From Escherichia coli (lineage in GTDB: Bacteria > Pseudomonadota > Gammaproteobacteria > Enterobacterales > Enterobacteriaceae), in the NCBI RefSeq assembly GCF_050920415.1, contig NZ_CP169309.1: DNA of 64,000 nucleotides. One strand, given 5' to 3'. Numbering within the stretch: the first letter of the stretch is position 1; every line of letters begins with the position of its first letter. The position numbers were made by a program, and so were the translations under genes. The notes under the pieces were generated by a model, which searched no databases, was not told where the DNA came from, and worked only from the letters and a program-made list of their open reading frames with translations. Shown here one piece after another: positions 7,211 through 50,477 of this stretch.

Positions 7211-7293
7211 TTGAGGATTCTTTTCCATACTTTGCAGCACCTGACACCATTAATTGACGTCACACTGCAAAGAGACTACGATGACACCATACA

Positions 7294-7593
7294 ATGACGT
7301 CATGGATTGATAGTATGATTAAGGTCAGCGCGCTAGGCTCTCGTCATAGAAAAACATTCGACGATGTAATGACGGAGCCGCCAAAATCTGGAATTAAATG
7401 GGATGATGTTGTTGCTCTCATTAAAGCGGTGGGTGGATCAATAAAAAATAACAACGGCTCCAGACGAAAATTTCAGATTGGAACGACCAAATTCAGCACA
7501 CATGAGCCGCATCCAAAGAATGTGATGGATAAAGGCGCAGTAGCAGGTCTTAAGGAGTGGTTTGTTAACTGTGTAGGGGTAGATTATGAATAA
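7294..7593 (+). CDS. HicA-like toxin (putative mRNA interferase) with N-terminal extension; alternative start ATG 7315
   Basis: ...GGSIKNNNGSRRKFQIGTTKFSTHEPHPKNVMDKGAVAGLKEW resembles the HicA/YcfA fold pattern; overlaps the downstream antitoxin-like gene by 8 bp. Confidence 0.5.
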   Translation: MTSWIDSMIKVSALGSRHRKTFDDVMTEPPKSGIKWDDVVALIKAVGGSIKNNNGSRRKFQIGTTKFSTHEPHPKNVMDKGAVAGLKEWFVNCVGVDYE

Positions 7594-7942
7594 AGCATCG
7601 AACATTATCACAATTAAAGGTCAACCAGCCGCAGTGACATTTGAAGCCGATATCAACGCATTTCGCGGCAAGTTCCTCAATGTAAACGGTTATTGTGACT
7701 TTGTAGCCACAAGTATTGAGGCATTATATCGTGAAGGCGAAAGCGCTCTGGATGAGTGGATGGCGGATTGTGAAGAGGACGGTATTGCCCCTTTTCGTGA
7801 AGAAGAAGAGCAAAAACGCCTGACGCTTCGTGTGCCGCATCACATCGATTCGCGGCTGACCATCGTCGCCAGACAACATTCCATTTCAAAAAACCAGCTC
7901 ATTATTGATGTCTTAGAACGTGAGTTTTCAGCCCAGATGTAA
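7586..7942 (+). CDS. HicB-like antitoxin with C-terminal ribbon-helix-helix DNA-binding domain
   Basis: 118 aa; C-terminal KRLTLRVPHHIDSRLTIVARQHSISKNQLIIDVLEREF is RHH-like; N-terminal part HicB-like; translationally coupled to the upstream toxin-like ORF. Confidence 0.55.
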   Translation: MNKASNIITIKGQPAAVTFEADINAFRGKFLNVNGYCDFVATSIEALYREGESALDEWMADCEEDGIAPFREEEEQKRLTLRVPHHIDSRLTIVARQHSISKNQLIIDVLEREFSAQM

Positions 7943-34835: not shown

Positions 34836-35848
34836 CGGCAAAACCGCCGTTACCGGCGGATGTGCGCAACTGCAATTTCTATGTGCTAATGGAGGCGCTG
34901 TACCGTCGGTATGGCACGCCGGGCCAGGACATTTCCCTGCGTACCGAGCCTGCCCGGGAGATCGTGCGTTTCAGCTCTGACGCCAGTATCGGTTTTCCGG
35001 GTACGGACCTGAGTGCGCTTTCCCGTAGCCAGAACGGACAGTATGTACTGCAAACCCGGTTCCTGGGTTTTTCCGGCAGCCAGTCGCCGCTACCAGGCTA
35101 TTATCTGGATCAGATGGCGCAGGAGTCCGCACAGAACGAAGACGGCCTGAAAGAATTTCTCGATCTATTCAGCCACCGCTGGACACAGTTTGCCTATCAT
35201 GCCTGGCGCAAATACCGCTACTACATCTGCTTTCGTAACGGCGGTACTGACACCTTTTCACAGCGCATGTACGCACTGGTCGGGCTGGGTAATCAGAGCG
35301 TGCGTGACAGGCTTGCCATTAACCACAGCAAAATGCTGGCCTACGCCGGAATTCTGGCAACACCAGGCCGCGCGCCGGAGGTTATCTGTAATCTGGTGTC
35401 GCACTGTTTTGATTTGCCGGATGTCACCATTGAACGCTGGCAACTGCGTAAAGTCGCCATTGATCCGGCACACCAGAACCGGCTGGGTGTACGTAATCCG
35501 AAAGGAAAAACGGCTGGACATATTCCGGGACGCTCCATACTCGGCGTTAATTTTACCCTCGGCGCACGGGTGCCGGATCGCAGCGGAAAATTCCTGTTGC
35601 AGATTGGCGGCCTGTCGCAGGAGCGTTATCTCTCATTTTTACCCGATGGCGAAAATCACCTGCCGCTGACCATGTTCCTTTCTTTTATTCTGCGCGACCA
35701 GTTTGCCTGGGATTTACGGCTGTGCCTGGCACCACAGCAGGCTAAAGGGATGCGCCTTGGCGATTCGGCCAGCTCCCGCCTCGGCAGAACCAGCTTTATT
35801 GGTCAGCCGAAAGTACCGCCCGCCATCACAATCCGAATCAGGGAATAA
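34799..35848 (+). CDS. tssG: T6SS baseplate protein TssG
   Basis: 349 aa, overlaps tssF end. Confidence 0.8.
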   Translation: MAGENGPARPDIAAKPPLPADVRNCNFYVLMEALYRRYGTPGQDISLRTEPAREIVRFSSDASIGFPGTDLSALSRSQNGQYVLQTRFLGFSGSQSPLPGYYLDQMAQESAQNEDGLKEFLDLFSHRWTQFAYHAWRKYRYYICFRNGGTDTFSQRMYALVGLGNQSVRDRLAINHSKMLAYAGILATPGRAPEVICNLVSHCFDLPDVTIERWQLRKVAIDPAHQNRLGVRNPKGKTAGHIPGRSILGVNFTLGARVPDRSGKFLLQIGGLSQERYLSFLPDGENHLPLTMFLSFILRDQFAWDLRLCLAPQQAKGMRLGDSASSRLGRTSFIGQPKVPPAITIRIRE

Positions 35849-35852
35849 TTCT

Positions 35853-37145
35853 ATGGAACCACATATGGCTGAGGAAAAACAGCAATCCCGCCAGGCCTCA
35901 CTGACTTTACAGGTGATGAATGGCAACGAACTGGAAAGCGGACGTGCCGCAAAATGCCTGTTCAGCGAAAACGGCGGTGATATTGGCCATACGCCGGAAT
36001 GTCACTGGCAGGTACAGGACCGGGCGGGAAGCATTGCTGCGCGTGCCTGTACCGTTATCCGGCACGACGGAGCCTATTGCCTGCGGTGCCTGACGCCGGG
36101 ACTGATGATTAATCTGGCCCCGGTCTCTTCCGATGCGCTCATCCGCCTGCGCCAGGGGGATGAGATCCAGCTCGGCGCACTGGCGCTGAAAGTGTTTCTG
36201 CATGACGGTGCAGCTGTTACTTATGACGAGCGGATGGCGACCCCGGAAACGATTGTAATGAACCGCGACAGTCTGGCGGACACCCTGTTGACCACCGAGG
36301 GACAACCGGCGTATCCGGGAATGCCGTTCCAGCATCAGCTTGCCCCCACGGTGGCGCACGGTTTTTCCAGCGATCCGCTCCAGGCACTCCAGACGGAAAG
36401 CCTGATGGTGGCAGATGATCCGATCGCCCCACGCGTTTCCCGGCCCGTTGCCCCCGCCTCCGATCTGACAGGTGCAAACGGGATCAACACGCCGTTTATG
36501 GATCTGCCGCCCGGCAATGCCCGTCATGAGGACGGCGATGAATTTTCTGCCATGGCGCAGTACCACCTGGCCGTAACCCCGCTGCTGCGCGGTATGGAGT
36601 GTCCGCTGACGCTGCACAATTCTCAGGATGCGGATGAGTTTCTCGAAGAGGCCGGACGGGCGTTGCAGGCCGCCATTAAGGGATTGCTGAGTCTGCAACA
36701 ACAACAGAACAGCCTGTCGGATAAACACCTGCGTCCACTGGAAGACAACCCGTTGCGCCTTGATATGGACTATGCCACCGCGCTGAACGTCATGTTCGCC
36801 GAGGGTAAAAGCCCGGTACATCTCGCCGCACCTGCGGCCATCGCCGAAAGCCTGCGCAACATCCGGCATCATGAAGAGGCCAACCGGGCGGCGATTGTGG
36901 AAGCGTTGCGTGTCATGCTGGACGCCTTCTCGCCGGGCAACCTGATGCGCCGCTTTGCGCAATACCGCCGCAGCCATGAGCTGCGCCAGAAAATGGACAA
37001 CGCCTGGGCATGGCAGATGTACAGCAACTATTACGATGAACTGGCCTCCAGCCGACAGCAGGGATTTGAAATGCTGTTCAATGAAGTTTATGCCCAGGTC
37101 TATGACCGGGTGCTGCGCGAAAAACAGCGGGAGCCGGAAGCATGA
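35853..37145 (+). CDS. tagH: FHA-domain T6SS protein TagH (Fha-like)
   Basis: ATG 35853; N-terminal FHA-like region, proline/alanine-rich middle. Confidence 0.75.
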   Translation: MEPHMAEEKQQSRQASLTLQVMNGNELESGRAAKCLFSENGGDIGHTPECHWQVQDRAGSIAARACTVIRHDGAYCLRCLTPGLMINLAPVSSDALIRLRQGDEIQLGALALKVFLHDGAAVTYDERMATPETIVMNRDSLADTLLTTEGQPAYPGMPFQHQLAPTVAHGFSSDPLQALQTESLMVADDPIAPRVSRPVAPASDLTGANGINTPFMDLPPGNARHEDGDEFSAMAQYHLAVTPLLRGMECPLTLHNSQDADEFLEEAGRALQAAIKGLLSLQQQQNSLSDKHLRPLEDNPLRLDMDYATALNVMFAEGKSPVHLAAPAAIAESLRNIRHHEEANRAAIVEALRVMLDAFSPGNLMRRFAQYRRSHELRQKMDNAWAWQMYSNYYDELASSRQQGFEMLFNEVYAQVYDRVLREKQREPEA

Positions 37146-37668: not shown

Positions 37669-39015
37669 ATGGCAACAATGAAAAACAAGGTGATCTGGCA
37701 GGAAGGGCTGTTTGCCCTGCCGCAGCATTTTCAGCAACAGCAGCGTCACTGCGAGTACCTGCTGACCCGTCGTCTGGATGCTCAGGGTGATTTTTTCTGG
37801 GGCTTTACGGAACTCTCCATCAATACCGAACTGCTTGCCCAGGGCAAAATCATGATTGACCGTGCGGCGGGCTGTATGCCTGACGGCACCGTATTCAGCA
37901 TTCCCGACCAGGATCTGCTGCCGGAACCTTTCCAGCCGGGAACCCTTTCATCGAAAGAGAGCCACAATATTTATCTGGCGCTGCCTGTAATCAGCGACGT
38001 GATCAATGAAATCCAGGGGTTGCACAGCGCCGGTCAGGGTACGGAGCGTTACCGCCTCACCCATACCCGCGTCCGTGATTTTCACACTGACGAAGGCGAC
38101 GAACAGCCGGTCGGTCTGGGGCAGTTGATCCCCAGGATAGTCAGCGGCGCAGATGATCTCAGCGCGATGGTGACCCTCCCCCTGTGCCGTATCCTCAATA
38201 AAAATGCTACCGGCGCACTGGTGCTGGACAACACCTTTATTCCCACCATTCAGGCCGTCCGTGTCAGCGGGTTGCTCGGGGCATTCTCCGGCGAGGTGCA
38301 GGGGCTACTTGCCACCCGCGCCGCCGACCTGGCCGGGCGCATCGGTTCGCCTGAACAGAGCGGGATCGCCGATGTGGCCGAATTTATGATGTTGCAGATG
38401 CTTAACCGCCATCAAATGCAGTTCACGCATCGTTCCCAACTGCACACGCTGCATCCGGAAGCCTTCTACCGGGATCTGGTGGGGCTGCTGGGAGAACTGA
38501 TGACCTTCACCGAAGGTAATCGCCTGCCCTGCACCGTGGAGCCGTATAATCACCGGGATCTTACCGCGACCTTCACCAGAACAGTAATTCCGGAACTGCG
38601 GCGCGCACTCAATACCGTGCTGGTACCGCGTGCGCAGAATCTGCCGCTGTTCTTTTCAGAGGGGACCTGGATCGCCACCATCAGCGATCCCACACTGTTG
38701 CAGTCCTGCAAGCTGGTACTGGCAGTGCGCGCCAGGATGCCCTACGACCAGGTGCAGCGCCAGTTCATCCAGCAGTCGAAAGTGGCCGCTACCGACAAAA
38801 TCCGCAGCGTGGTCAGCGTGCAGGTGCCGGGTATTCCGCTGCACACGCTTACCGCTGCGCCGCGTCAGTTGCCCTGGCATGAAGGTTATGTTTACTTCGA
38901 ACTGGAAAAAGGCACCCCAGCCTGGCAGGACGTGATAAAAGCGGGCGCGCTGGCGCTGCATATCTCCGGCACCTTCCCCGATCTGAACCTTCAGCTCTGG
39001 GCGATAAGGGGATAA
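37669..39015 (+). CDS. tssK: T6SS baseplate protein TssK
   Basis: 448 aa, N-terminus ...VIWQEGLFALPQHFQQQ... Confidence 0.85.
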   Translation: MATMKNKVIWQEGLFALPQHFQQQQRHCEYLLTRRLDAQGDFFWGFTELSINTELLAQGKIMIDRAAGCMPDGTVFSIPDQDLLPEPFQPGTLSSKESHNIYLALPVISDVINEIQGLHSAGQGTERYRLTHTRVRDFHTDEGDEQPVGLGQLIPRIVSGADDLSAMVTLPLCRILNKNATGALVLDNTFIPTIQAVRVSGLLGAFSGEVQGLLATRAADLAGRIGSPEQSGIADVAEFMMLQMLNRHQMQFTHRSQLHTLHPEAFYRDLVGLLGELMTFTEGNRLPCTVEPYNHRDLTATFTRTVIPELRRALNTVLVPRAQNLPLFFSEGTWIATISDPTLLQSCKLVLAVRARMPYDQVQRQFIQQSKVAATDKIRSVVSVQVPGIPLHTLTAAPRQLPWHEGYVYFELEKGTPAWQDVIKAGALALHISGTFPDLNLQLWAIRG

Positions 39016-39019
39016 GTGA

Positions 39020-39793
39020 ATGAGCGATATCAGCGATATGGGTGAACCGTCGGTTTTTCCCATGGAGCCGGAGAGCGGAACATCAGGACGTCAGTACCGT
39101 CTCGCCCTTCGCGGCAACAGCCTGAACCCAATGATTGACGCCGCCACGCCGTTGCTCGGCATGGTGATGCGTCTGTCCACCATGAACAGCCAGGCCATGC
39201 CGGAACACCTGTTTGCCCAGGTGGTAACCGATGTCCAGGCTGTGGAGCAACTACTCCAGGAGCAGGGTTACGAGCCGGGCGTCATTGTTTCGTTCCGCTA
39301 CATTCTCTGCACATTTATAGACGAAGCGGCGCTAGGCAACGGCTGGTCCAACAAAAACGAATGGATTAAACAGTCACTGCTGGTTCATTTCCATAACGAA
39401 GCCTGGGGCGGTGAGAAAGTGTTTATCCTGCTCGAACGCCTGATCCGCGAGCCGGTACGTTACCAGGATCTGCTGGAGTTTTTATACATCTGTTTTTCGC
39501 TCGGCTTTCGCGGGCGCTACAAGGTTGCCATTCAGCAACAGGATGAATTTGAGCGGATCTACCAGCGCCTGCACCATGCCCTGCACAAACTGCGCGGTGA
39601 CGCGCCATTTTCGCTGCTTCACCAGAAGAACAACATACAGGGCGGGCGTTATCAGTTAATCCGGCGGCTGACCATCAGGCATGTAATGTGCGGCGGTCTT
39701 GTTGTGCTGGCCGTATTTTATCTGTTTTATCTGCTGCGTCTGGACAGCCAGACACAGGATATTCTGCATCAGCTCAATAAATTACTCCGATAA
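39020..39793 (+). CDS. tssL: T6SS membrane protein TssL (DotU-like)
   Basis: 257 aa with C-terminal TM helix. Confidence 0.85.
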   Translation: MSDISDMGEPSVFPMEPESGTSGRQYRLALRGNSLNPMIDAATPLLGMVMRLSTMNSQAMPEHLFAQVVTDVQAVEQLLQEQGYEPGVIVSFRYILCTFIDEAALGNGWSNKNEWIKQSLLVHFHNEAWGGEKVFILLERLIREPVRYQDLLEFLYICFSLGFRGRYKVAIQQQDEFERIYQRLHHALHKLRGDAPFSLLHQKNNIQGGRYQLIRRLTIRHVMCGGLVVLAVFYLFYLLRLDSQTQDILHQLNKLLR

Positions 39794-39802
39794 GGACATC
39801 TT

Positions 39803-42535
39803 ATGATCCAGATTGATTTAGCCACGCTGGTAAAGCGGCTTAACCCCTTTGCAAAACAGGCGCTGGAAATGGCTGCCTCGGAGTGTATGAGCCAGCAGGC
39901 CAGTGAGATCACCGTTGCCCATGTGCTGTTGCAGATGCTGGCTATCCCGCGCAACGACGTAAGGGTAATTACCGAACGCACAGGCATCAGTGCGGAGGAG
40001 CTACGCCAGGCGCTGACCGTGGAGAGTTATCCCAGCGGACGTTCCGCCGAAGGCTATCCCAGCTTCTCCCCGATGCTGGTCGAATGGCTCAAGGAGTCAT
40101 GGCTGCTGGCCTCGGCCCAGATGCAGCACAGCGAACTACGCGGCGGCGTGCTGCTGCTGGCTCTGCTGCATTCACCGCTGCGCTATATTCCACCCGCTGC
40201 TGCCCGTCTGCTGACGGCCATAAACCGCGACCAGTTACAGCAGGATTTCGCGTCATGGACTAAAGAGTCCGCCGAATCCGTGAACCAGGTTGGCGGACAG
40301 GCACCCGGCACGCCTGAAACCGGCGACAGCGGGCTTGCCCGCTACGCCAAAAACATGACCGAAGATGCCCGTAACGGCAAACTTGACCCTGTACTGTGCC
40401 GTGACCATGAAATCGACCTGATGATCGACATTCTCTGCCGCCGTCGTAAAAACAATCCGGTGGTGGTGGGTGAAGCGGGTGTGGGTAAAAGTGCCTTAAT
40501 CGAAGGGCTGGCGCTGCGTATTGTCTCAGGCCAGGTGCCGGACAAGCTGAAAAACACCGATATTATGACCCTTGACCTCGGCGCATTGCAGGCCGGGGCG
40601 TCAGTGAAGGGCGAGTTTGAAAAACGCTTTAAGGGACTAATGGCGGAAGTTATCTCGTCTCCTGTGCCGGTCATTCTGTTTATCGACGAAGCGCATACCC
40701 TGATTGGCGCGGGAAATCAGGCCGGAGGACTCGATGTTTCCGGGTTGCTGAAACCGGCGCTGGCGCGGGGTGAACTGAAAACCATCGCCGCCACCACCTG
40801 GAGCGAATACAAAAAATACTTCGAGAAAGATGCCGCGCTTTCGCGCCGCTTCCAGTTAGTGAAAGTCAGTGAACCTACCGCAGCAGAGGCCACCATTATT
40901 CTGCGTGGTCTGTCGGCGGTCTATGAACAGTCTCACGGCGTGCTGATTGATGATGACGCCTTGCAGGCCGCTGCGACATTAAGTGAGCGTTATCTCTCCG
41001 GGCGTCAATTGCCGGACAAAGCGATTGATGTGCTGGATACGGCCTGCGCCCGCGTGGCAATCAACCTGTCATCGCCACCAAAGCAAATCTCAGCGCTGAC
41101 CACCCTGAGCCACCAGCAGGAGGCGGAAATTCGCCAGCTTGAGCGCGAGCTTCGCATCGGGCTGCGTACCGACACCTCGCGGATGACGGAGGTGCTGGTG
41201 CAGTATGATGTAACGCTGACGGCGCTGGATGAACTGGAAGCCGCCTGGCACCAGCAACAGGCGCTGGTACAGGAGATTATTACGCTACGCCAGCAGTTAC
41301 TGGGCGTTGCAGAGGACACAGATGCCGTAGTGGATACGCCGTCAGAGTCAGAACAGGATAATACCGGTGCCGTACTGGCTGATGAAGCTGGCAGCGTACA
41401 GCCGGAAGAGACTGTTGAAACAGTTTCCCCGGTACAGCGTCTGGCACAGCTCACTGCCGAGCTGGACGCCCTGCATAACGACCGGTTGCTGGTTTCCCCG
41501 CACGTCGATAAAACGCAGATTGCGGCGGTAATCGCAGAATGGACCGGCGTACCGCTTAACCGCCTGTCGCAGAATGAAATGTCGGTCATCACCAACCTGC
41601 CCGTATGGCTTGGAGACACTATCAAAGGCCAGGACCTGGCGATTGCCAGCCTGCATAAACATCTGCTGACTGCACGCGCCGACCTGCGCCGTCCGGGACG
41701 TCCGCTTGGCGCGTTCCTGCTGGCTGGCCCCAGCGGCGTGGGTAAAACCGAAACCGTCCTGCAACTGGCGGAACTGCTCTACGGCGGTCGCCAGTATCTG
41801 ACCACCATCAATATGTCCGAGTTTCAGGAAAAACACACCGTCTCGCGGCTGATTGGTTCCCCTCCGGGCTATGTCGGCTATGGCGAAGGTGGCGTCCTGA
41901 CCGAAGCGATTCGCCAGAAACCCTACTCGGTGGTGCTGCTCGATGAAGTGGAAAAAGCGCACCCGGATGTACTCAACCTGTTCTACCAGGCGTTTGACAA
42001 GGGCGAGATGGCAGACGGTGAAGGCCGCCTGATTGACTGTAAAAATATCGTTTTCTTCCTGACCTCCAACCTTGGCTACCAGGTGATTGTCGAACACGCC
42101 GATGACCCGGAAACCATGCAGGAAGCCCTCTATCCGGTGCTGGCGGACTTCTTTAAACCTGCCCTGCTGGCGCGCATGGAAGTGGTGCCTTACATGCCGC
42201 TGTCGAAAGAGACGCTCGCTACCATTATTGCCGGGAAACTGGCCCGCCTGGATAACGTGCTGCGCAGCCGCTTTGGCGCGGACGTGATTATTGAGCCGGA
42301 AGTGACGGACGAAATCATGAGCCGTGTCACCCGCGCTGAAAACGGCGCAAGGATGCTCGAATCGGTCATCGACGGCGACATGCTGCCGCCGCTCTCGCTG
42401 CTGCTGTTGCAGAAGATGGCAGCCAACACGGCGATTGCCCGGATTCGTCTGTCGGCGGCAGACGGTGCATTCACAGCAGACGTGGAAGATGCTCAGGACG
42501 ACGAGTCCGTCACAGAGGATGAAACGGTTTTATGA
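39803..42535 (+). CDS. tssH: T6SS AAA+ ATPase ClpV (TssH)
   Basis: 910 aa, two Walker A motifs (GEAGVGKS, GPSGVGKT), Clp N-domain. Confidence 0.9.
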   Translation: MIQIDLATLVKRLNPFAKQALEMAASECMSQQASEITVAHVLLQMLAIPRNDVRVITERTGISAEELRQALTVESYPSGRSAEGYPSFSPMLVEWLKESWLLASAQMQHSELRGGVLLLALLHSPLRYIPPAAARLLTAINRDQLQQDFASWTKESAESVNQVGGQAPGTPETGDSGLARYAKNMTEDARNGKLDPVLCRDHEIDLMIDILCRRRKNNPVVVGEAGVGKSALIEGLALRIVSGQVPDKLKNTDIMTLDLGALQAGASVKGEFEKRFKGLMAEVISSPVPVILFIDEAHTLIGAGNQAGGLDVSGLLKPALARGELKTIAATTWSEYKKYFEKDAALSRRFQLVKVSEPTAAEATIILRGLSAVYEQSHGVLIDDDALQAAATLSERYLSGRQLPDKAIDVLDTACARVAINLSSPPKQISALTTLSHQQEAEIRQLERELRIGLRTDTSRMTEVLVQYDVTLTALDELEAAWHQQQALVQEIITLRQQLLGVAEDTDAVVDTPSESEQDNTGAVLADEAGSVQPEETVETVSPVQRLAQLTAELDALHNDRLLVSPHVDKTQIAAVIAEWTGVPLNRLSQNEMSVITNLPVWLGDTIKGQDLAIASLHKHLLTARADLRRPGRPLGAFLLAGPSGVGKTETVLQLAELLYGGRQYLTTINMSEFQEKHTVSRLIGSPPGYVGYGEGGVLTEAIRQKPYSVVLLDEVEKAHPDVLNLFYQAFDKGEMADGEGRLIDCKNIVFFLTSNLGYQVIVEHADDPETMQEALYPVLADFFKPALLARMEVVPYMPLSKETLATIIAGKLARLDNVLRSRFGADVIIEPEVTDEIMSRVTRAENGARMLESVIDGDMLPPLSLLLLQKMAANTAIARIRLSAADGAFTADVEDAQDDESVTEDETVL

Positions 42536-43275
42536 GCAGGTTGCGCGTTTTCCGGCAGACAGGATTGTTTATCGCGGGCCTGATGGCGGGCTTACCCGCC
42601 AGTGCCGCACCCGCAGAAACATCGTCAATGGCCGGTGTGGCGGTAGCTGTCGCCACAGCGACACCGCCGGATGCGACAGCCACGTTACAGGCCATGCAGT
42701 CCTGTCGCCAGGAGACGGCGGCGCTGGATCGGCTTGACTGTTATGACCGCATTCTTGCGCCGGAACAGGCTGGCTTTGGTGGTGCCGCACTGGTGAAAGC
42801 TCGTTACCAGGGTGAAGCCTGGACCCGTGCGACAGAACAGGAAAAACGCCGCCAGGGCAACACCACGGAGCTGCTGGTAACGCAAGTACCGGGTGAACGC
42901 CCGACGGTGGTGATAACCACCCCGGCTATCGGCCATGTTCCGCCGCGCCCGGTGCTGATGTTCAGTTGCGTGGACAATATCACCCGGATGCAGGTGGCGC
43001 TGATGCACCCTCTGGATGTCCATGATATCGCCGTCACCCTGAATGCCGACAGCCGGGCATTGCGCAGCCACTGGTTTGTGCGCGAGAACGGCACCCTGCT
43101 GGAGTCCAGCCGGGGGTTATCCGGTATCGATGAAATTAAGCAACTGTTCGGCGCAAAAACGCTGACGGTGGATACCGGCACAGACAACGCCGCCGGAAAG
43201 CTGACCTTTAACATTGACGGGCTGGCACGGGTTATTGCGCCGCTACGCGACGCCTGCCACTGGGCGGGAGAATAA
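42532..43275 (+). CDS. T6SS-associated periplasmic protein (VasI-like; assignment tentative)
   Basis: 247 aa, signal peptide; sits in the position of vasI in Vibrio-type clusters. Confidence 0.4.
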   Translation: MSRLRVFRQTGLFIAGLMAGLPASAAPAETSSMAGVAVAVATATPPDATATLQAMQSCRQETAALDRLDCYDRILAPEQAGFGGAALVKARYQGEAWTRATEQEKRRQGNTTELLVTQVPGERPTVVITTPAIGHVPPRPVLMFSCVDNITRMQVALMHPLDVHDIAVTLNADSRALRSHWFVRENGTLLESSRGLSGIDEIKQLFGAKTLTVDTGTDNAAGKLTFNIDGLARVIAPLRDACHWAGE

Positions 43276-43279
43276 GAAT

Positions 43280-44722
43280 ATGGCAATGGACTTACGTAAT
43301 CCTGATGTATGGCTTGCACACCTGCTGGAAAACCTGCCGGAAGATAAGCGGTCCGCCGCGCTTGATGATGGCAATGCAGACTGGGAGTTTATCGACAGCG
43401 AAATCGTCAAGCTCGGCTCGCTGGCGCACAGCCAGCTCGATATCCCGGAACTTCAGCGCCGGGGCCTGATGCTTCTGGCCTCAGAAACCAAAGATTTTCG
43501 CCTGCTGGCCCACCTGCTGCGTACCCTGCAACATGCCGGTGATATTCTGCTGGCCACCAGGATGCTGGCACAATATACAGAACACTACTGGACATGCGCC
43601 GCACCGCAGAACATGGCCCACAAAAAACGCTTTGCCGCCCAGGTGATAAAACGCTTTGAGTCTGCCGTTCAGGACTTTGCCGGGAATGCTGCGACAATAC
43701 AGCGCGATGCTTTGCTGGGAGAGCTGGCAAAACTGGCACAGTGCTGGCAGGCGCACAACGCGCCTGAGCTGGCTAAGGCGACAGACGATTTATTTGCCCT
43801 GTTTCAGCGCGCGTTTCGTGATGTAGCGCCTGAAATGCCATCATCTGCACGAACCGCCGCCATTGCGCCGCAGGCCACAGCCGGATCTGTACCGGATATG
43901 TCACCGCACACGGTTGCCGCTCAGCCTCCTGTTGCAGCCACTCCAATCCCGCAGGTCACTGTTGACAGCCACGACGATAAAGCATGGCGCGACACCCTGC
44001 TGAAGGTGGCCGCCATTCTCTGTGAGCGCCAGCCGGAGTCACCGCAGGGTTACCGACTGCGCCGCCATGCTCTGTGGCAGACCATCACCAGTCCCCCGCA
44101 GGCAGAAAGCGATGGCCGGACCCCACTGGCAGCCTTCCCTGTCGATATGATGGATGATTACCTGGCGCGGCTGAACAATGCCGACATGGCGCTGTGGCAG
44201 CAGGTGGAAAAAAGCCTGCTGCTGGCCCCGTACTGGCTGGACGGCCATTACCTCTCAGCACAGACCGCGTTGCGCCTTGGTTATATACAGGTGGCGGATG
44301 CTATCCGTGATGAAGTTACCAGTTTTCTTGCTCGCCTGCCCGCACTGCTCAACATGTTGTTTAACGACCGCACTCCGTTTGTGTCCGAACAGACGAAACA
44401 GTGGCTGGCATCATCGGGCTCAGGCAACCAAACCGCAGCAGCTGTACAGACCGATGAAGAATTACAGGCGGCCAGGGCGTGCTTCGATGAGAACGGGCTG
44501 GAAACCGCGCTGCGGTATCTGGAAAACCTGCCCGAAGGTGATCCCCGTAACCAGTTTCATCGCCAATTTTTCGGCGCGCAGTTACTGGAAGAAGCCGGTA
44601 TGGTTCAGCTTGCACAACAGCAGTACCGGATGCTCTTCAGAACAGGATTACACATGATGCTGTCCGAATGGGAACCGTCCCTGCTGGAAGCTCTGGAACA
44701 AAAATTCACGGCAGAACAGTAA
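43280..44722 (+). CDS. tssA: T6SS protein TssA (VasJ-like)
   Basis: ATG 43280; about 480 aa; upstream of tssM as in Vibrio-type gene order. Confidence 0.55.
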   Translation: MAMDLRNPDVWLAHLLENLPEDKRSAALDDGNADWEFIDSEIVKLGSLAHSQLDIPELQRRGLMLLASETKDFRLLAHLLRTLQHAGDILLATRMLAQYTEHYWTCAAPQNMAHKKRFAAQVIKRFESAVQDFAGNAATIQRDALLGELAKLAQCWQAHNAPELAKATDDLFALFQRAFRDVAPEMPSSARTAAIAPQATAGSVPDMSPHTVAAQPPVAATPIPQVTVDSHDDKAWRDTLLKVAAILCERQPESPQGYRLRRHALWQTITSPPQAESDGRTPLAAFPVDMMDDYLARLNNADMALWQQVEKSLLLAPYWLDGHYLSAQTALRLGYIQVADAIRDEVTSFLARLPALLNMLFNDRTPFVSEQTKQWLASSGSGNQTAAAVQTDEELQAARACFDENGLETALRYLENLPEGDPRNQFHRQFFGAQLLEEAGMVQLAQQQYRMLFRTGLHMMLSEWEPSLLEALEQKFTAEQ

Positions 44723-44741
44723 AAGATAACAAGGAGTTACC

Positions 44742-47700
44742 GTGTTCAAATTTCCCACATCCCGACTGTTCAGCTCGTTGAGATCTGCGCTCAGGCCAGC
44801 GATGCCGCGATTCAGGGTATCCGCCGCCTGGCTGCTGGCGCTGGCATGGATTTTTCTGCTGGTGTGGATCTGGTGGCAGGGTCCAAAATGGACGCTCTAT
44901 GAGCAGCACTGGCTGGCTCCGCTGGCAAACCGCTGGCTGGCGACCGCCGTCTGGGGGCTTATCGCTCTGGTCTGGCTCACCTGGCGGGTAATGAAGCGTC
45001 TGCAAAAGCTGGAAAAACAGCAGAAACAGCAGCGGGAGGAAGAAAAAGATCCGTTGACCGTGGAACTCCACCACCAGCAGCAATATCTGGATCACTGGCT
45101 GCTGCGCCTGCGCCGCCATCTGGATAACCGCCGTTATCTGTGGCAGTTGCCGTGGTATATGGTCATTGGTCCTGCGGGTAGCGGCAAAAGCACGCTGCTG
45201 CGCGAGGGCTTTCCGTCTGACATTATTTACATGCCGGAAAGCATCCGGGGGGTGGAATATCATCCGCTGATCACACCGCGAGTGGGCAACCAGGCAGTAA
45301 TTTTCGATGTTGACGGCGTACTGACCTCCCCCGGCGGGGATGATCTGCTCCACCGCCGCCTGCGCGAACACTGGCTGGGCTGGCTGATGGAAACGCGCGC
45401 ACGCCAGCCGCTCAATGGTCTGATCCTGACGCTCGATCTTCCCGAACTGCTGACGGCGGATAAACCCCGTCGCGAAGCACTGGTACAAAATCTGCGTCAG
45501 CAACTTCAGGAAATTCGCCAGTGCCTGCACTGCCGGTTGCCCGTTTATGTGGTGCTGACCCGACTGGATCTACTGACCGGCTTTGCCGCGCTGTTCCATT
45601 CACTGGATAAAAAAGACCGCGACGCGATCCTCGGCGTCACGTTTACCCGCCGCGCTCATGAAAACGATGACTGGCGCAGCGAGCTGAGCACCTTCTGGCA
45701 GACCTGGGGACAACAGATGAACCTGGCCCTGTCAGACCTGATGCTCGTGCAGACCGGCACTGCATTGCGCAGTGCCGTGTTCAGCTTCTCCCGTCAGATG
45801 CAGGGAACGGGAGAAATCGTCACCGCACTGCTCGCCGCATTGCTGGACGGTGAGAACATGGATGTGATGCTGCGCGGCGTCTGGCTCACATCATCGCTAC
45901 AGCGTGGCCAGGTGGATGATATTTTCACGCAGTCTGCCGCCCGCCAGTACGGGCTGGGCAACAGTTCGCTGGCAACCTGGCCTCTGGTGGAGACAACGCC
46001 CTATTTCACCCGCCGCCTCTTCCCTGAAGTCCTGCTATCCGAGCCGAACCTGGCGGGTGAAAACAGCGTCTGGCTGAGCAGCTCCCGGCGCAGGCTGACC
46101 GCCTTTTCCGCCTGTGGCGCAGCGCTGGTGGCGTTGCTGGTCGGAAGCTGGCACCATTATTACAACCAGAACTGGCAGTCCGGCGTTAACGTACTGGCAC
46201 AGGCTAAAGCCTTTATGGACGTACCACCACCGCAGGGAACGGATGAATTCGGCAATCTGCAACTACCGTTGCTTAACCCGGTACGCGATGCCACCCTGGC
46301 CTATGGCGATTACCGCGATCACGGTTTTCTGGCGGATATGGGATTGTACCAGGGCGTCCGCGTAGGGCCGTATGTGGAGCAAACCTACATTCAGCTTCTT
46401 GAGCAGCGTTATCTCCCCTCATTAATGAACGGCCTGATCCGGGATCTGAACAATGCCCCGCCAGAGAGCGAAGAAAAGCTCGCCGTGCTGCGCATACTGC
46501 GCATGATGGAAGACAAAAGTGGGCGCAACAACGAGGCGGTAAAACAGTACATGGCGCGGCGCTGGAGCAATGAATTTCACGGCCAGCGTGATATTCAGGC
46601 GCAACTGATGGCGCATCTGGAGTATGCGCTTGAGCACACGGACTGGCACGCGCAGCGCCAATCCGGTGATAGCGATGCTGTCAGCCGCTGGATACCCTAT
46701 GATAAACCGGTCATTAATGCACAACATGAACTGAGCAAGCTGCCCATATACCAGCGTGTCTACCAGACACTACGCACCAAAGCATTAAGCGTGTTGCCCG
46801 CCGATATGAATTTGCGCGACCAGGTTGGCCCCACCTTCGACAAAGTTTTCGTCGCTGGTAATGATGAAAAACTGGTGATCCCGCAGTTTCTCACCCGCTA
46901 TGGCCTGCAAAGCTATTTTGTCAAACAGCGTGAGGGCCTCGTTGAACTGACCGCGCTGGATTCGTGGGTACTGAACCTGACGCAAAGCGTCGCCTACAGC
47001 GAGGCCGACCGTGAAGAGATCCAGCGTCATATTACCGAACAGTACATCAGTGATTACACCGCCACCTGGCGTGCCGGAATGGATAACCTCAACGTACGTG
47101 ATTATGAGGCTATGCCGGAGCTGACCGACGCGCTGGAGCAGATTATCAGCGGCGACCAGCCGTTCCAGCGTGCACTGACAGCGCTGCGAGATAATACCCA
47201 CGCGTTAACGCTCCCCGGTAAACTGGACGATAAGGCGAGAGAAGCGGCGATAAATGAGCTGGATTACCGCCTGCTATCCCGGCTGGGACATGAGTTCGCA
47301 CCAGAAAACAGCGCACTGGAGGAGCAAAAGGACAAAGCGAGTACGCTCCAAGCCGTGTACCAGCAACTGACCGAGTTGCATCGTTACCTTCTGGCGATCC
47401 AGAACTCACCAGTGCCGGGGAAATCGGCACTAAAAGCAGTACAGCTACGGCTGGATCTAAACAGCAGCGATCCAATCTTCGCCACCCGTCAGATGGCAAA
47501 AACCCTGCCTGCGCCTCTTAACCGCTGGGTGGGCAAGCTGGCGGATCAGGCCTGGCATGTAGTGATGGTGGAAGCCGTTCATTACATGGAAGTGGACTGG
47601 CGCAACAATGTAGTGAATCCCTTCAACGAACAGCTTGCCGACAACTATCCATTTAATCCACGCGCCACACAGGATGCCTCACTGGATGCGTTTGAACGTT

Positions 47701-48269
47701 TCTTTAAACCGGATGGCATTCTGGACAATTTCTATAAGGATAACCTGCGACTGTTCCTTGAAAACGATCTGACCTTTGGCGACGACGGCAGAGTGCTGAT
47801 CCGTGAAGATATCCGACAACAACTGGATACCGCGCAAAAAATCCGCGACATCTTCTTCAGCCAGCAGAACGGGCTGGGCACACAATTTGCCGTGGAAACG
47901 GTGTCGCTTTCCGGCAATAAACGGCGCAGCGTACTTAACCTGGACGGCCAGTTAGTGGACTACAGCCAGGGACGCAACTATACCGCCCATCTGGTCTGGC
48001 CAAACAACATGCGTGAAGGCAATGAAAGCAAGCTGACGCTGGTTGGCACCAGCGGTGGAGCACCGCGCAGTATCGCTTTCAGTGGACCGTGGGCGCAGTT
48101 CCGCCTGTTCGGCGCGGGCCAGTTGACCAACGTGACCAGTGACACCTTTAACGTGCGCTTTAACGTGGACGGCGGCGCGATGGTTTATCGGGTGCATGTG
48201 GATACCGAAGATAACCCGTTCACCGGTGGTCTGTTCAGCCAATTCCGTTTACCGGATACGTTGTATTAA
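44742..48269 (+). CDS. tssM: T6SS membrane complex protein TssM (IcmF-like)
   Basis: GTG start with AAGGAG SD; 1175 aa; N-terminal TM helices, Walker A GPAGSGKST. Confidence 0.9.
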   Translation: MFKFPTSRLFSSLRSALRPAMPRFRVSAAWLLALAWIFLLVWIWWQGPKWTLYEQHWLAPLANRWLATAVWGLIALVWLTWRVMKRLQKLEKQQKQQREEEKDPLTVELHHQQQYLDHWLLRLRRHLDNRRYLWQLPWYMVIGPAGSGKSTLLREGFPSDIIYMPESIRGVEYHPLITPRVGNQAVIFDVDGVLTSPGGDDLLHRRLREHWLGWLMETRARQPLNGLILTLDLPELLTADKPRREALVQNLRQQLQEIRQCLHCRLPVYVVLTRLDLLTGFAALFHSLDKKDRDAILGVTFTRRAHENDDWRSELSTFWQTWGQQMNLALSDLMLVQTGTALRSAVFSFSRQMQGTGEIVTALLAALLDGENMDVMLRGVWLTSSLQRGQVDDIFTQSAARQYGLGNSSLATWPLVETTPYFTRRLFPEVLLSEPNLAGENSVWLSSSRRRLTAFSACGAALVALLVGSWHHYYNQNWQSGVNVLAQAKAFMDVPPPQGTDEFGNLQLPLLNPVRDATLAYGDYRDHGFLADMGLYQGVRVGPYVEQTYIQLLEQRYLPSLMNGLIRDLNNAPPESEEKLAVLRILRMMEDKSGRNNEAVKQYMARRWSNEFHGQRDIQAQLMAHLEYALEHTDWHAQRQSGDSDAVSRWIPYDKPVINAQHELSKLPIYQRVYQTLRTKALSVLPADMNLRDQVGPTFDKVFVAGNDEKLVIPQFLTRYGLQSYFVKQREGLVELTALDSWVLNLTQSVAYSEADREEIQRHITEQYISDYTATWRAGMDNLNVRDYEAMPELTDALEQIISGDQPFQRALTALRDNTHALTLPGKLDDKAREAAINELDYRLLSRLGHEFAPENSALEEQKDKASTLQAVYQQLTELHRYLLAIQNSPVPGKSALKAVQLRLDLNSSDPIFATRQMAKTLPAPLNRWVGKLADQAWHVVMVEAVHYMEVDWRNNVVNPFNEQLADNYPFNPRATQDASLDAFERFFKPDGILDNFYKDNLRLFLENDLTFGDDGRVLIREDIRQQLDTAQKIRDIFFSQQNGLGTQFAVETVSLSGNKRRSVLNLDGQLVDYSQGRNYTAHLVWPNNMREGNESKLTLVGTSGGAPRSIAFSGPWAQFRLFGAGQLTNVTSDTFNVRFNVDGGAMVYRVHVDTEDNPFTGGLFSQFRLPDTLY

Positions 48270-48277
48270 GGGGGTTA

Positions 48278-49639
48278 GTGATGAGCAACAATGTACTGAC
48301 ACAAACTATCGTTACCGGCAGCGATCCGCGTACCCTGCCGGAGTTCAGCGCCATCCGCGAAGAAATTAACAAAGCTAACCACCCGTCACAGCCGGAGCTG
48401 AACTGGAAACTAGTGGAATCGCTGGCGCTGTCAATTTTTAAGGCCAACGGGGTGGATTTGCATACCGCCACCTACTATACGCTGGCACGTACACGTAATC
48501 AGGGACTGGCAGGGTTCTGTGAAGGCGCGGAACTGCTAGCTGCGATGATCACCCACGAATGGGATAAATTCTGGCCGCAAAGTGGCCCGGCGAGGACTGA
48601 GATGCTGGACTGGTTCAACACCCGCACCGGGAATATCCTGCGCCAGCAGGTTTCCTTTTCCGAAAATGATCTTTCGTTGCTCTACCGCACGGAACGGGCT
48701 TTGCAGCTTATCTGCGACAAACTCCAGCAGGTGGAACTGAAGCGCCAACCGCGCGTGGAAAATCTGCTTTATTTTGTGCAGAACACACGCAAGCGGTTTG
48801 AGCCGCAGCCCAGAAACCGTACTGCTACGGCGGCACAGACCATGGTCAGAACGCTGGTCTATGCGCCTGAAGGCACGGCTTCCGCCACAGCGGAAACCAT
48901 GCCCCCCCTACCCGACCTGCCGGAAATGCGGGTGGAGGTGCGCGGAGTGGCAGATAACGCCGACAAAGCAAAACAGGGCGACACGGTAAAAGGTTTTGTT
49001 GCCGGTGCCGCCTGTACTGCCGTTATCGCTGCTGCACTCTGGTGGTGGCAGACGTACCCGATGCAGCGGCAGCTTACAAAGGTCAGGGATACCACACAGG
49101 GAGCAGCCACCGTCTGGCTGGCATCACCGGTACTGAAAGAATATGAACAGAACCTGCAACAGCTTCTGAATACCCCACCGCTACAGCCGCTGGAAACCGG
49201 AATGCAGATGATGCGCACCGCAGACACCCTCTGGCCGGAAAGCCTGCAACAGCAGGAAGCCAGCCGGATGTGGAGCACCACGCTGAGAAACCGGGCGCAA
49301 GCCAGTCCGCAGATGAAGGGCTGGCAACAGGCGCGGCAGAATTTGCGGGATTTTGCGGATCTGATGATGAAAAAGGAGACGGAGAAACAGGGTTTCACCC
49401 TCTCGTATATCAAAACGGTGACCTGGCAGGCCGAACGGTTACTGAATCAGGAAACTCCACTGGAGTACATGCTGACGCAGTACCAGGAGACCCGCACGCA
49501 GAATCAGGACACACAAGCGCTAGCAAAAGAGATCAACCAACGGCTGGATGGGCTGTTAAGCCGCTGGCTGTTGCTGAAAAATACCGGACAGGATATGGCA
49601 ACGGACAACAGCACCGTGCCAGTCCCTCCGACCCATTGA
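48278..49639 (+). CDS. T6SS accessory protein with ImpA-like N-terminal region and central TM segment (VasL/TagA-like)
   Basis: 453 aa; position after tssM; TM segment VAGAACTAVIAAALWWW. Confidence 0.45.
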   Translation: MMSNNVLTQTIVTGSDPRTLPEFSAIREEINKANHPSQPELNWKLVESLALSIFKANGVDLHTATYYTLARTRNQGLAGFCEGAELLAAMITHEWDKFWPQSGPARTEMLDWFNTRTGNILRQQVSFSENDLSLLYRTERALQLICDKLQQVELKRQPRVENLLYFVQNTRKRFEPQPRNRTATAAQTMVRTLVYAPEGTASATAETMPPLPDLPEMRVEVRGVADNADKAKQGDTVKGFVAGAACTAVIAAALWWWQTYPMQRQLTKVRDTTQGAATVWLASPVLKEYEQNLQQLLNTPPLQPLETGMQMMRTADTLWPESLQQQEASRMWSTTLRNRAQASPQMKGWQQARQNLRDFADLMMKKETEKQGFTLSYIKTVTWQAERLLNQETPLEYMLTQYQETRTQNQDTQALAKEINQRLDGLLSRWLLLKNTGQDMATDNSTVPVPPTH

Positions 49640-49656
49640 GTTTAAGGAGAATAACA

Positions 49657-50136
49657 ATGGCAAATCCCGTCTATCTGACACTGAACGGAGAACTTCAGGG
49701 GCTGATTTCATCCGGATGCTCGTCAATGCCGTCCATCGGTAACAAAGCCCAGATTGCACATCAGGATCAGATCATGGTGACGTCACTGTCCCATGGTCTG
49801 AGCCGGGCGCAGAATGTCAACCACCAGGAGCTGACCATCACGAAACCGGTGGACAAATCTTCCCCCCTGCTGGGCAAGGCCATTTCGGAGAATGAATGTC
49901 TGACCTGTGATTTTGTATTCTATCGCACCAACCGCTTTGGTGTTAATGAACCGTACTACAAGGTGAAACTGACTAACGCCCGGATCTCAAACATCGGCCT
50001 TACCGTTCCCCATACCATTAACGACAGCCCAGGACAGCCGGAAGAGTCTGTGTCATTTACCTATGAGAGTATCAACTGGGAGCACAGCGTCGCCGGAACC
50101 AGTGCGTACAGCCTTTGGAGTGAACGGATTTTCTAA
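49657..50136 (+). CDS. hcp: T6SS tube protein Hcp (TssD), core-operon copy
   Basis: ATG 49657 with AAGGAGA SD; 160 aa Hcp-like. Confidence 0.85.
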   Translation: MANPVYLTLNGELQGLISSGCSSMPSIGNKAQIAHQDQIMVTSLSHGLSRAQNVNHQELTITKPVDKSSPLLGKAISENECLTCDFVFYRTNRFGVNEPYYKVKLTNARISNIGLTVPHTINDSPGQPEESVSFTYESINWEHSVAGTSAYSLWSERIF

Positions 50137-50477
50137 GTTACCTAGGAGTTTTTCATCTGCATTATTGTTATATTTTAAAAAGGCAATTTAACATCATAAA
50201 ATAAAATGATAAAGTACGGTTAATCACGAATAAAAATTCTTAATTAACCGTACCTGCTGTTTTATAGATGTGTATGATGTATTTTTGACAGTTCAACCGA
50301 AAACTCGAACTACAGCTTATATGTTGAGAGAACAATAAATAACTTTAGTAAAGTTTTTTACTACTCCTAAAAAAATATATATGTAAAATTAATTAGCAGA
50401 CTTGAACCAGAGTATAAATAGAAAAGAAAATGCTCTTTCTTGCTAAGTACCATTAAAACGTCTGGTATAAAACCTTA

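Follow-up and report, generated by a model that had tools for sequence, protein, structure and literature searches.

The 64,000-nucleotide window analysed here is Escherichia coli DNA carrying a type VI secretion system (T6SS) island linked to the aspV tRNA gene, and our subject is two of its plus-strand open reading frames (ORFs). We consider it probable that both are non-core accessory genes of this aspV-linked, Vibrio-type T6SS, one encoding VasI and the other TagA. Judged by its sequence, the ORF at 42532-43275 is a clear member of the VasI/TagO family, while that at 48281-49639 has the predicted architecture of TagA (VasL/TsmA, class B TssA-like), namely an ImpA_N domain, one hydrophobic helix and a VasL domain. 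Both proteins belong to known curated families and are already annotated, and nothing in them is new in kind. What is added is small: an IalB/MotY-N-like predicted fold for VasI, a family-wide motif and export signal, and a measured relation of the second protein to the TagA-type ORF of enteroaggregative E. coli (EAEC).

An initial annotation of the window had described these genes as accessory T6SS proteins, VasI-like and VasL-like, in the vasI and vasL positions of Vibrio-type clusters. Both ORFs are real: each is found in the ORF list at the positions that annotation gave (42532-43275 and 48278-49639), their Pfam E-values lie far beyond chance, and a 100%-identical RefSeq record has them annotated. 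The labels and the accessory reading are likewise upheld, with curated family thresholds passed and synteny persisting down to approximately 30% identity. The gene order clpV-vasI-tssA-tssM-vasL-hcp matches that of Vibrio-type clusters except for vasH, which is absent in E. coli. A profile-model search, proposed at the time as a check, matched the VasI and VasL families far above their curated cut-offs.

VasI family, export signal and predicted fold

The vasI gene and the segments of its product are located as follows.

42532..43275, plus strand: vasI (tagO) coding sequence, 247 aa, ATG start (ORF list; PF11319; TIGR03360; RefSeq 'vasI' WP_000088848.1)
42532..42606, plus strand: predicted Sec signal peptide, aa 1-25 (sequence heuristic)
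42607..42672, plus strand: Ala/Val/Thr/Pro-rich linker, aa 26-47 (low confidence in AlphaFold2)
42703..42747, plus strand: family-invariant motif C58-x9-R67-L68-x-C70-Y71-D72, joining the first and second AlphaFold2 helices (alignment A1)
42874..43212, plus strand: predicted β-sandwich domain, aa 115-227, IalB/MotY-N-like (AlphaFold2, predicted local distance difference test (pLDDT) >94)

VasI matches Pfam PF11319 with 184 bits (gathering threshold 26.5, E 2.8e-54) over model positions 2-184 of 184, and the NCBIfam equivalog TIGR03360 with 272.1 bits (cut-off 124.2) over positions 1-187 of 187. The family is small, with 301 cluster representatives at E<=1e-3 among 1.84 billion. Alignment A1 brings together 84 diverse members that share 23-61% identity with the E. 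coli query. Neither VasI by itself nor the 84-sequence profile matched any sequence in the PDB. When all 84 members were scanned against Pfam at E<=10, PF11319 was the only family found, with no IalB (PF06776) or other family; the clear homology to an unrelated non-T6SS family that had been named as evidence against the initial annotation was thus found for VasI in none of them. [quoted passage not shown] As PADLOC (anti-phage defence) scans of VasI and the VasL-like protein gave no match, these SDIC4-type proteins are not sequence relatives.

The signal peptide was called by a heuristic reading of the n-region, h-region and AXA site. It comprises the n-region MSRLRVFRQ with three Arg, the 15-residue h-region GLFIAGLMAGLPASA and an A-S-A↓A cleavage site after residue 25. 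Of the 84 family members, 81 have an N-terminal h-region, in line with the signal peptide claimed at the outset, and clear lipoboxes occur in two. All 84 members carry the motif C-x9-RL-x-C-[YF]-D, and nine columns are invariant throughout the alignment (C58, R67, C70, D72, C146, W181, G195, C242 and W244; 84/84). The export signal together with the four invariant cysteines suggests that VasI is probably a disulfide-stabilised periplasmic protein.

An AlphaFold2 model of VasI based on the 84-sequence alignment reached a pLDDT of 86.5 and a predicted template modelling score of 0.72. Residues 1-47 are unstructured in the model (pLDDT 55-65) and are followed by helices at 48-58, 64-80 and 95-105, the β-sandwich and a short C-terminal helix. 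A Foldseek comparison covering the PDB structure libraries ranked 3dtd (IalB) first with a probability of 0.98-1.00, and identity to the fold neighbours was 9-17% in the structural alignments. On the strength of this model, the β-sandwich would resemble those of IalB and the MotY N-terminal domain, a small fold common to periplasmic envelope proteins. IalB-domain proteins are envelope proteins, of which the molecular function is not known. Bartonella IalB (PDB 3dtd) and other IalB-domain proteins, for example Sinorhizobium meliloti RgsG, share the fold likeness with no detectable sequence relationship to VasI; IalB lacks the N-terminal helical part and the C-x9-RL-x-C-[YF]-D motif, and is unlinked to T6SS. 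The second neighbour, PDB 8z5n chain A, is presumably the N-terminal domain of MotY from the T-ring of the Vibrio polar flagellar motor.

The V. cholerae counterpart VCA0118 (TagO) belongs to the same equivalog family, occupies the same slot directly upstream of tssA, is exported and, like E. coli VasI, falls in the range of approximately 220-250 aa. In the E. coli protein, by contrast, the signal peptide is followed by an additional Ala/Val/Thr-rich linker. The family diverges fast, with 48% identity between V. fluvialis and V. cholerae and approximately 30% between E. coli and the Aeromonas-type proteins.

Conservation across T6SS clusters, a further check that the initial annotation had proposed, is borne out by the position of vasI. 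In all seven distant loci with a VasI of only approximately 30% identity (L002-L006, L009 and L010), the gene directly downstream of vasI is a VasJ-type tssA; these loci include Aeromonas-type, Proteus, Yersinia and metagenomic ones, and vasH usually precedes vasI in them. The clpV-vasI-tssA order is also found in O157 (L008), and within E. coli the identity to O157 is 91% for VasI and 90% for ClpV. At the larger distance, VasI (29-30%) and VasL (30%) are the lowest of the cluster, the other proteins being 34-64% identical; VasI and VasL are likewise the least conserved of the cluster in a published V. fluvialis/V. cholerae comparison. With respect to the vasI upstream junction, the sigma-54 activator gene vasH is absent between clpV and vasI in E. 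coli (junction at 42532) and present in Aeromonas-type and other distant clusters. The same slot in Proteus and Yersinia (L009 3512-4309; L010 3495-4295) encodes a protein of approximately 265 aa with a weak C-terminal HTH_8 match, possibly a decayed VasH.

Architecture and relatives of the TagA-type protein

The second gene and the parts of its product are as follows.

48281..49639, plus strand: tagA, 'VasL domain-containing protein' coding sequence, 452 aa (ORF list; RefSeq WP_001355442.1; Pfam ImpA_N + VasL)
48308..48805, plus strand: N-terminal helical domain with ImpA_N, equivalent to TssA Nt1, aa 10-175 (AlphaFold2, Pfam)
48818..48979, plus strand: disordered linker, aa 180-233 (AlphaFold2 pLDDT <50; poor conservation in alignment A2)
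48992..49051, plus strand: single hydrophobic, putatively membrane-anchoring helix GFVAGAACTAVIAAALWWWQ, about aa 238-257 (Kyte-Doolittle; inside AlphaFold2 helix 235-269)
49103..49606, plus strand: C-terminal all-helical VasL domain, aa 275-442 (AlphaFold2, Pfam)

The gene can start at GTG 48278, giving 453 aa, or at the adjacent ATG 48281 chosen by RefSeq, giving 452 aa. ImpA_N covers residues 13-114 (73.7 bits, E 1.8e-20) and the VasL domain PF12486 covers residues 289-433 (89.2 bits vs 27.3, E 3.4e-25, model 1-146 of 147). The AlphaFold2 model (pLDDT 80) consists of an N-domain, the linker, a long helix at 235-269 and a C-domain. The hydrophobic segment, at residues of about 235-257, has a Kyte-Doolittle 19-mer maximum of 1.72 and no second segment was seen. 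It recurs in 56 of 57 homologues (Enterobacterales, Aeromonas and a Pseudomonas sp. match), where its position is kept and its sequence is not. The one central transmembrane segment attributed to this protein at the outset therefore stands as a single hydrophobic segment of conserved position, with membrane spanning itself putative. Among the homologues the architecture and length are conserved, there are 14 invariant columns, and the C-terminal domain is confidently folded. A structure search with that domain gave generic TPR-like neighbours only, and the fold therefore provides no function for the VasL domain. No toxin domain was found in the protein by Pfam or PADLOC.

The ImpA_N/Nt1 domain is shared with TssA proper, the VasJ-type protein encoded at 43280-44722. 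In the VasL-like protein, the hydrophobic helix and VasL domain take the place of the VasJ C-terminal oligomerisation domain. Assignment as a TssA was considered and rejected: the match to the TssA equivalog model TIGR03362 reaches 86.4 bits (cut-off 230.1) and covers model positions 14-210 of 476 only, and is thus both below cut-off and confined to the N-terminus.

V. cholerae VasL (VCA0121, also TagA(VC) and TsmA) is encoded directly after tssM (vasK), like the E. coli gene, in a cluster of similar order that differs in having vasH. VCA0121 has ImpA_N followed by a hydrophobic region, as in the E. coli protein (Schneider 2019), and the Pfam family PF12486 that the E. coli protein matches is named after it. 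Aeromonas-type VasL homologues are approximately 30% identical to the E. coli protein, and VCA0121 is likened to it by family and position. The E. coli protein would be expected to share its function as a membrane-bound sheath stopper and holder acting via TssA.

The protein was also compared with a TagA-type ORF of EAEC 042 located downstream of the sci-1 cluster (L011:24071-25438), which is 29% identical to it (E 2e-54) and collinear over the full length (12-432 vs 9-449). The EAEC ORF (455 aa) and the protein described here (452 aa) both combine ImpA_N and VasL, and their single hydrophobic helices coincide in position. From the gene count, position and architecture, we take this ORF to be the characterised TagA EC042_4550. 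The ORF lies five genes from the core genes, not directly after tssM, and the sci-1 cluster is without vasI. It belongs to a different T6SS (sci-1, Ec042-4524-4555, separate from the aspV locus; PMC2808357). In the RefSeq annotation of EAEC 042 (NC_017626.1), this intact 455-aa ORF appears as three partial pseudogene fragments, labelled ImpA_N, 'POTRA' and VasL.

Proposed roles and alternative readings

The name TagA has been given to TssA-like proteins that combine a transmembrane region with a VasL domain, and the TagA of V. cholerae is VCA0121, i.e. VasL (PMC6745524). [quoted passage not shown] A role of TagA as sheath stopper and distal anchor has been demonstrated in both EAEC and V. cholerae (PMC6745524, PMC7545191). 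On the basis of homology and synteny, the mechanism in the present E. coli system is likely the same. The N-terminal TssA-like ImpA_N domain would face the cytoplasm, the single hydrophobic helix would tie the protein to the inner membrane, and TagA would halt sheath polymerisation and keep the extended sheath at the membrane until contraction. The VasL-like gene can hence be read as tagA, with a mechanism known from related systems. The initial statement that the two proteins were of uncertain identity and without characterised function is outdated for this one, given its TagA architecture and the role known from the same reports (PMC6745524, PMC7545191).

Several points weigh against this account of TagA as it stands. 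The V. cholerae ΔtagA phenotypes are only mild, and the contribution in the E. coli system may therefore be small. The topology could be either single-pass N-in/C-out or that of a monotopic/peripheral anchor. K/R residues are commoner on the N-terminal side of the hydrophobic segment in the homologue alignment, a bias that suggests the single-pass arrangement with a periplasmic VasL domain. TagA is described as peripherally membrane-associated (PMC7545191), and TagA-mNeonGreen is fluorescent in V. cholerae (PMC6745524); if the tag is C-terminal, as the name suggests, the C-terminus may be cytoplasmic. That the VasL-like protein is instead a decayed, non-functional TssA duplicate, as proposed for VCA0121 in 2011, has scarcely any probability in our view. 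Only the ImpA_N region is common to this protein and TssA (TIGR03362 86 bits vs 230), and ΔVCA0121 was without phenotype in bulk assays (PMC3166118), both of which would fit decay. Set against this are the architecture and length kept in Enterobacterales, Aeromonas and a Pseudomonas sp., the 14 invariant columns and the folded C-terminal domain, while later imaging found clear sheath phenotypes of tagA mutants in V. cholerae and EAEC; the decay proposal had thereby already been refuted.

With respect to VasI, the experimental record is that of V. cholerae. Deletion of VCA0118 left Hcp and VgrG-1 secretion normal and yielded a strain that was avirulent to amoebae and weaker in killing E. coli, and the protein was classed as a "putative effector" (PMC3166118, Zheng et al. 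2011). Dispensability for Hcp/VgrG secretion combined with a requirement for full killing is documented for V. cholerae VCA0118 only (PMC3166118). Targeted proteomics in V. cholerae found VasI stable while secreted components were depleted (PMC6565705). Among the papers covered by a literature search for VasI, TagO, DUF3121 and VCA0118, no functional study was later than that of Zheng et al. 2011, and a 2024 preprint still describes VasI function as poorly understood. VasI is one of the few T6SS-operon proteins lacking a mechanism.

The model and context suggest that VasI most likely serves the TssJLM membrane complex as an accessory on the envelope side, and acts neither as a secreted toxin nor in immunity. 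This role is favoured because the Sec signal is conserved, the slot in the core operon is fixed, the gene is distant from the effector modules and the divergence of VasI tracks that of ClpV. What the analysis establishes for the two proteins is the families they belong to, their architecture, the export signal, the conservation of synteny and the similarity of fold; the TagA mechanism in this particular system and the whole of the VasI mechanism are inferred. VasI would be exported by Sec and then reside in the periplasm, probably stabilised by disulfides; its N-terminal helical region carries the invariant motif and is followed by the IalB/MotY-N-like β-sandwich. As an accessory of TssJLM, it would make firing productive, in the sense of delivery into targets, as opposed to making it possible. 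Certain observations count against this picture or narrow it. The fold likeness would indicate where such domains work, as opposed to their activity. The distant cluster L002 has VasI without VasL, and the two are therefore not an obligate pair. Finally, both experimental records come from other systems, and for the E. coli aspV system the two roles would be assigned by analogy.

The initial annotation had also raised the possibility of unrecognised effector- or immunity-related proteins. A role for VasI as T6SS effector or as surface adhesin acting on target cells, proposed for VCA0118 in 2011, is very improbable. That proposal drew on the ΔVCA0118 strain, which keeps Hcp/VgrG-1 secretion and loses amoeba virulence and part of its bacterial killing, hence the authors' "putative effector" (PMC3166118). 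T6SS cargo is loaded in the cytoplasm, whereas the Sec signal of VasI is conserved family-wide; neither Pfam nor PADLOC identified a toxin domain in VasI, and its small β-sandwich is a fold common to periplasmic envelope proteins. The gene is fixed between clpV/vasH and tssA, whereas the vgrG, PAAR, adaptor and immunity genes are on the other side of the island, and VasI abundance in V. cholerae is steady while secreted components fall (PMC6565705). More generally, T6SS effectors are recognised as cytoplasmic proteins that have no Sec signal, a vgrG, PAAR, hcp or adaptor link, a toxin domain and an adjacent immunity gene; VasI has a signal peptide, and no toxin domain is present in either VasI or the VasL-like protein. 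Being exported, small and non-essential for secretion, VasI does resemble many immunity proteins, and yet a role as immunity protein against a periplasm-acting effector appears extremely unlikely. The gene adjoins no effector gene, it is kept with the core operon in a constant slot across orders at approximately 30% identity, and its divergence within E. coli follows ClpV and not the variable effector cargo. The ΔVCA0118 phenotype is moreover one of lost killing, not of self-intoxication. Taken with the conserved Sec signal, the fixed core-operon slot away from the effector modules and the lack of depletion in V. cholerae (PMC6565705), the effector and immunity readings can be dropped.

Two further readings concern how an envelope-side VasI might act. 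One holds that VasI is a periplasmic sensor or regulator tuning the time or place of firing, with a logic like that of the P. aeruginosa TagR/TagQ threonine-phosphorylation pathway and no structural brace. The forkhead-associated (FHA) protein TagH is encoded without a kinase or phosphatase, and another input may thus exist (PMC2808357); the V. cholerae mutant releases Hcp and yet is a poor killer, as might be seen if its firing were mis-timed or mis-placed. We nevertheless regard the sensor role as unlikely, as VasI has no sequence or fold likeness to TagR, TagQ or known sensor domains, the mutant has unchanged Hcp and VgrG secretion levels, and the operon contains no evident transmembrane signalling partner. 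The other reading takes the accessory role further. By analogy with MotY-N, we hypothesise that VasI may act as a brace or collar. In its full form, this reading gives Vibrio-type (VasJ-TssA) T6SSs a structural element in the periplasm that has so far gone unrecognised, with VasI oligomerising around TssJLM or bracing it, possibly together with a periplasmic VasL domain of TagA; we rate it as distinctly unlikely. [quoted passage not shown] An envelope-side structural role of VasI can be approached through its IalB/MotY-N-like fold, its invariant cysteine motif and its close linkage to VasJ-type tssA.

Operon, island and other genes in the window

The two genes belong to a tightly packed plus-strand row consisting of tssB, tssC, tssE, tssF, tssG, tagH (FHA), tssJ, tssK, tssL, tssH/clpV, vasI, tssA, tssM, tagA/vasL and hcp, the neighbours each being assigned by Pfam or NCBIfam. 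Those closest to the two genes are listed here.

39803..42535, plus strand: tssH/clpV, upstream neighbour of vasI (Pfam AAA_2, AAA_lid_9, ClpB_D2-small; RefSeq annotation)
43280..44722, plus strand: tssA, VasJ-type (ImpA_N + T6SS_VasJ), presumed TagA partner (TIGR03362 454 bits vs 230; Pfam PF16989; synteny in L002-L006, L009, L010)
44742..48269, plus strand: tssM, membrane complex, directly 5' of tagA (TIGR03348 941 bits; GTG start with AAGGAG Shine-Dalgarno)
49657..50136, plus strand: hcp, downstream neighbour and last gene of the operon (Pfam T6SS_HCP; RefSeq annotation)

The first 4 nt of vasI overlap the end of clpV and the remaining junctions measure 4-19 nt, spacing on which the operon reading is based. 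Shine-Dalgarno-like sequences precede vasI, tssM, the VasL-like gene and hcp. A consensus scan of 39000-51700 gave 13 promoter-like sites (8.7 ± 2.7 in shuffles), none a convincing internal promoter, and 11 terminator-like sites (13.4 ± 3.8 in shuffles), none convincing; both numbers are near what shuffled sequence yields.

The island is bounded by yafV on one side and by a tRNA-Asp gene adjoining dnaQ-rnhA on the other. Over the 8.2-kb segment around vasI and tagA, identity to the E. coli chromosome NZ_CP169399.1 is 100%. Of 5426 complete E. coli genomes, 3346 contain matching DNA, and 2359 of these have at least 80% of the segment. The island is the aspV-linked T6SS known from EAEC 042 (Ec042-0210-0226; PMC2808357) and from enterohaemorrhagic E. 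coli EDL933, where the system (z0243-z0275) was shown to be functional (PMC5363993).

The start codons of two other genes in the row differ from those in RefSeq. For tssM, RefSeq begins at 44832 (CTG, without Shine-Dalgarno), as opposed to GTG 44742 with AAGGAG upstream at the right spacing; with the RefSeq start, 30 N-terminal residues would be lost and the first hydrophobic helix would be truncated. The tagH ORF (35703-37145) opens at TTG 35703 (480 aa), while the RefSeq start is at 35865 (426 aa). A kinase or phosphatase cognate to this FHA protein is absent from the cluster, as in EAEC 042 (PMC2808357).

The effector side of the island occupies 1-30000 of the window, mostly on the minus strand, with the effector modules at 8537-29111 (minus strand). 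It comprises a Tle1-like phospholipase accompanied by three DUF3304 genes and a DUF4123 adaptor, a vgrG disrupted by IS21, an M23 peptidase with PAAR and a Tae4 amidase module. Mobile elements on this side are IS2, ISAs1 remnants and a group II intron maturase (6581-7903). At the opposite end, between hcp and the tRNA-Asp gene, a 261-aa 'hypothetical protein' with a lipoprotein-type signal (LLAGC) is encoded at 50478-51263 on the minus strand, in a stretch of 39% GC. It has no Pfam match and no PADLOC match, and in O157 a related-looking gene occupies the same slot.

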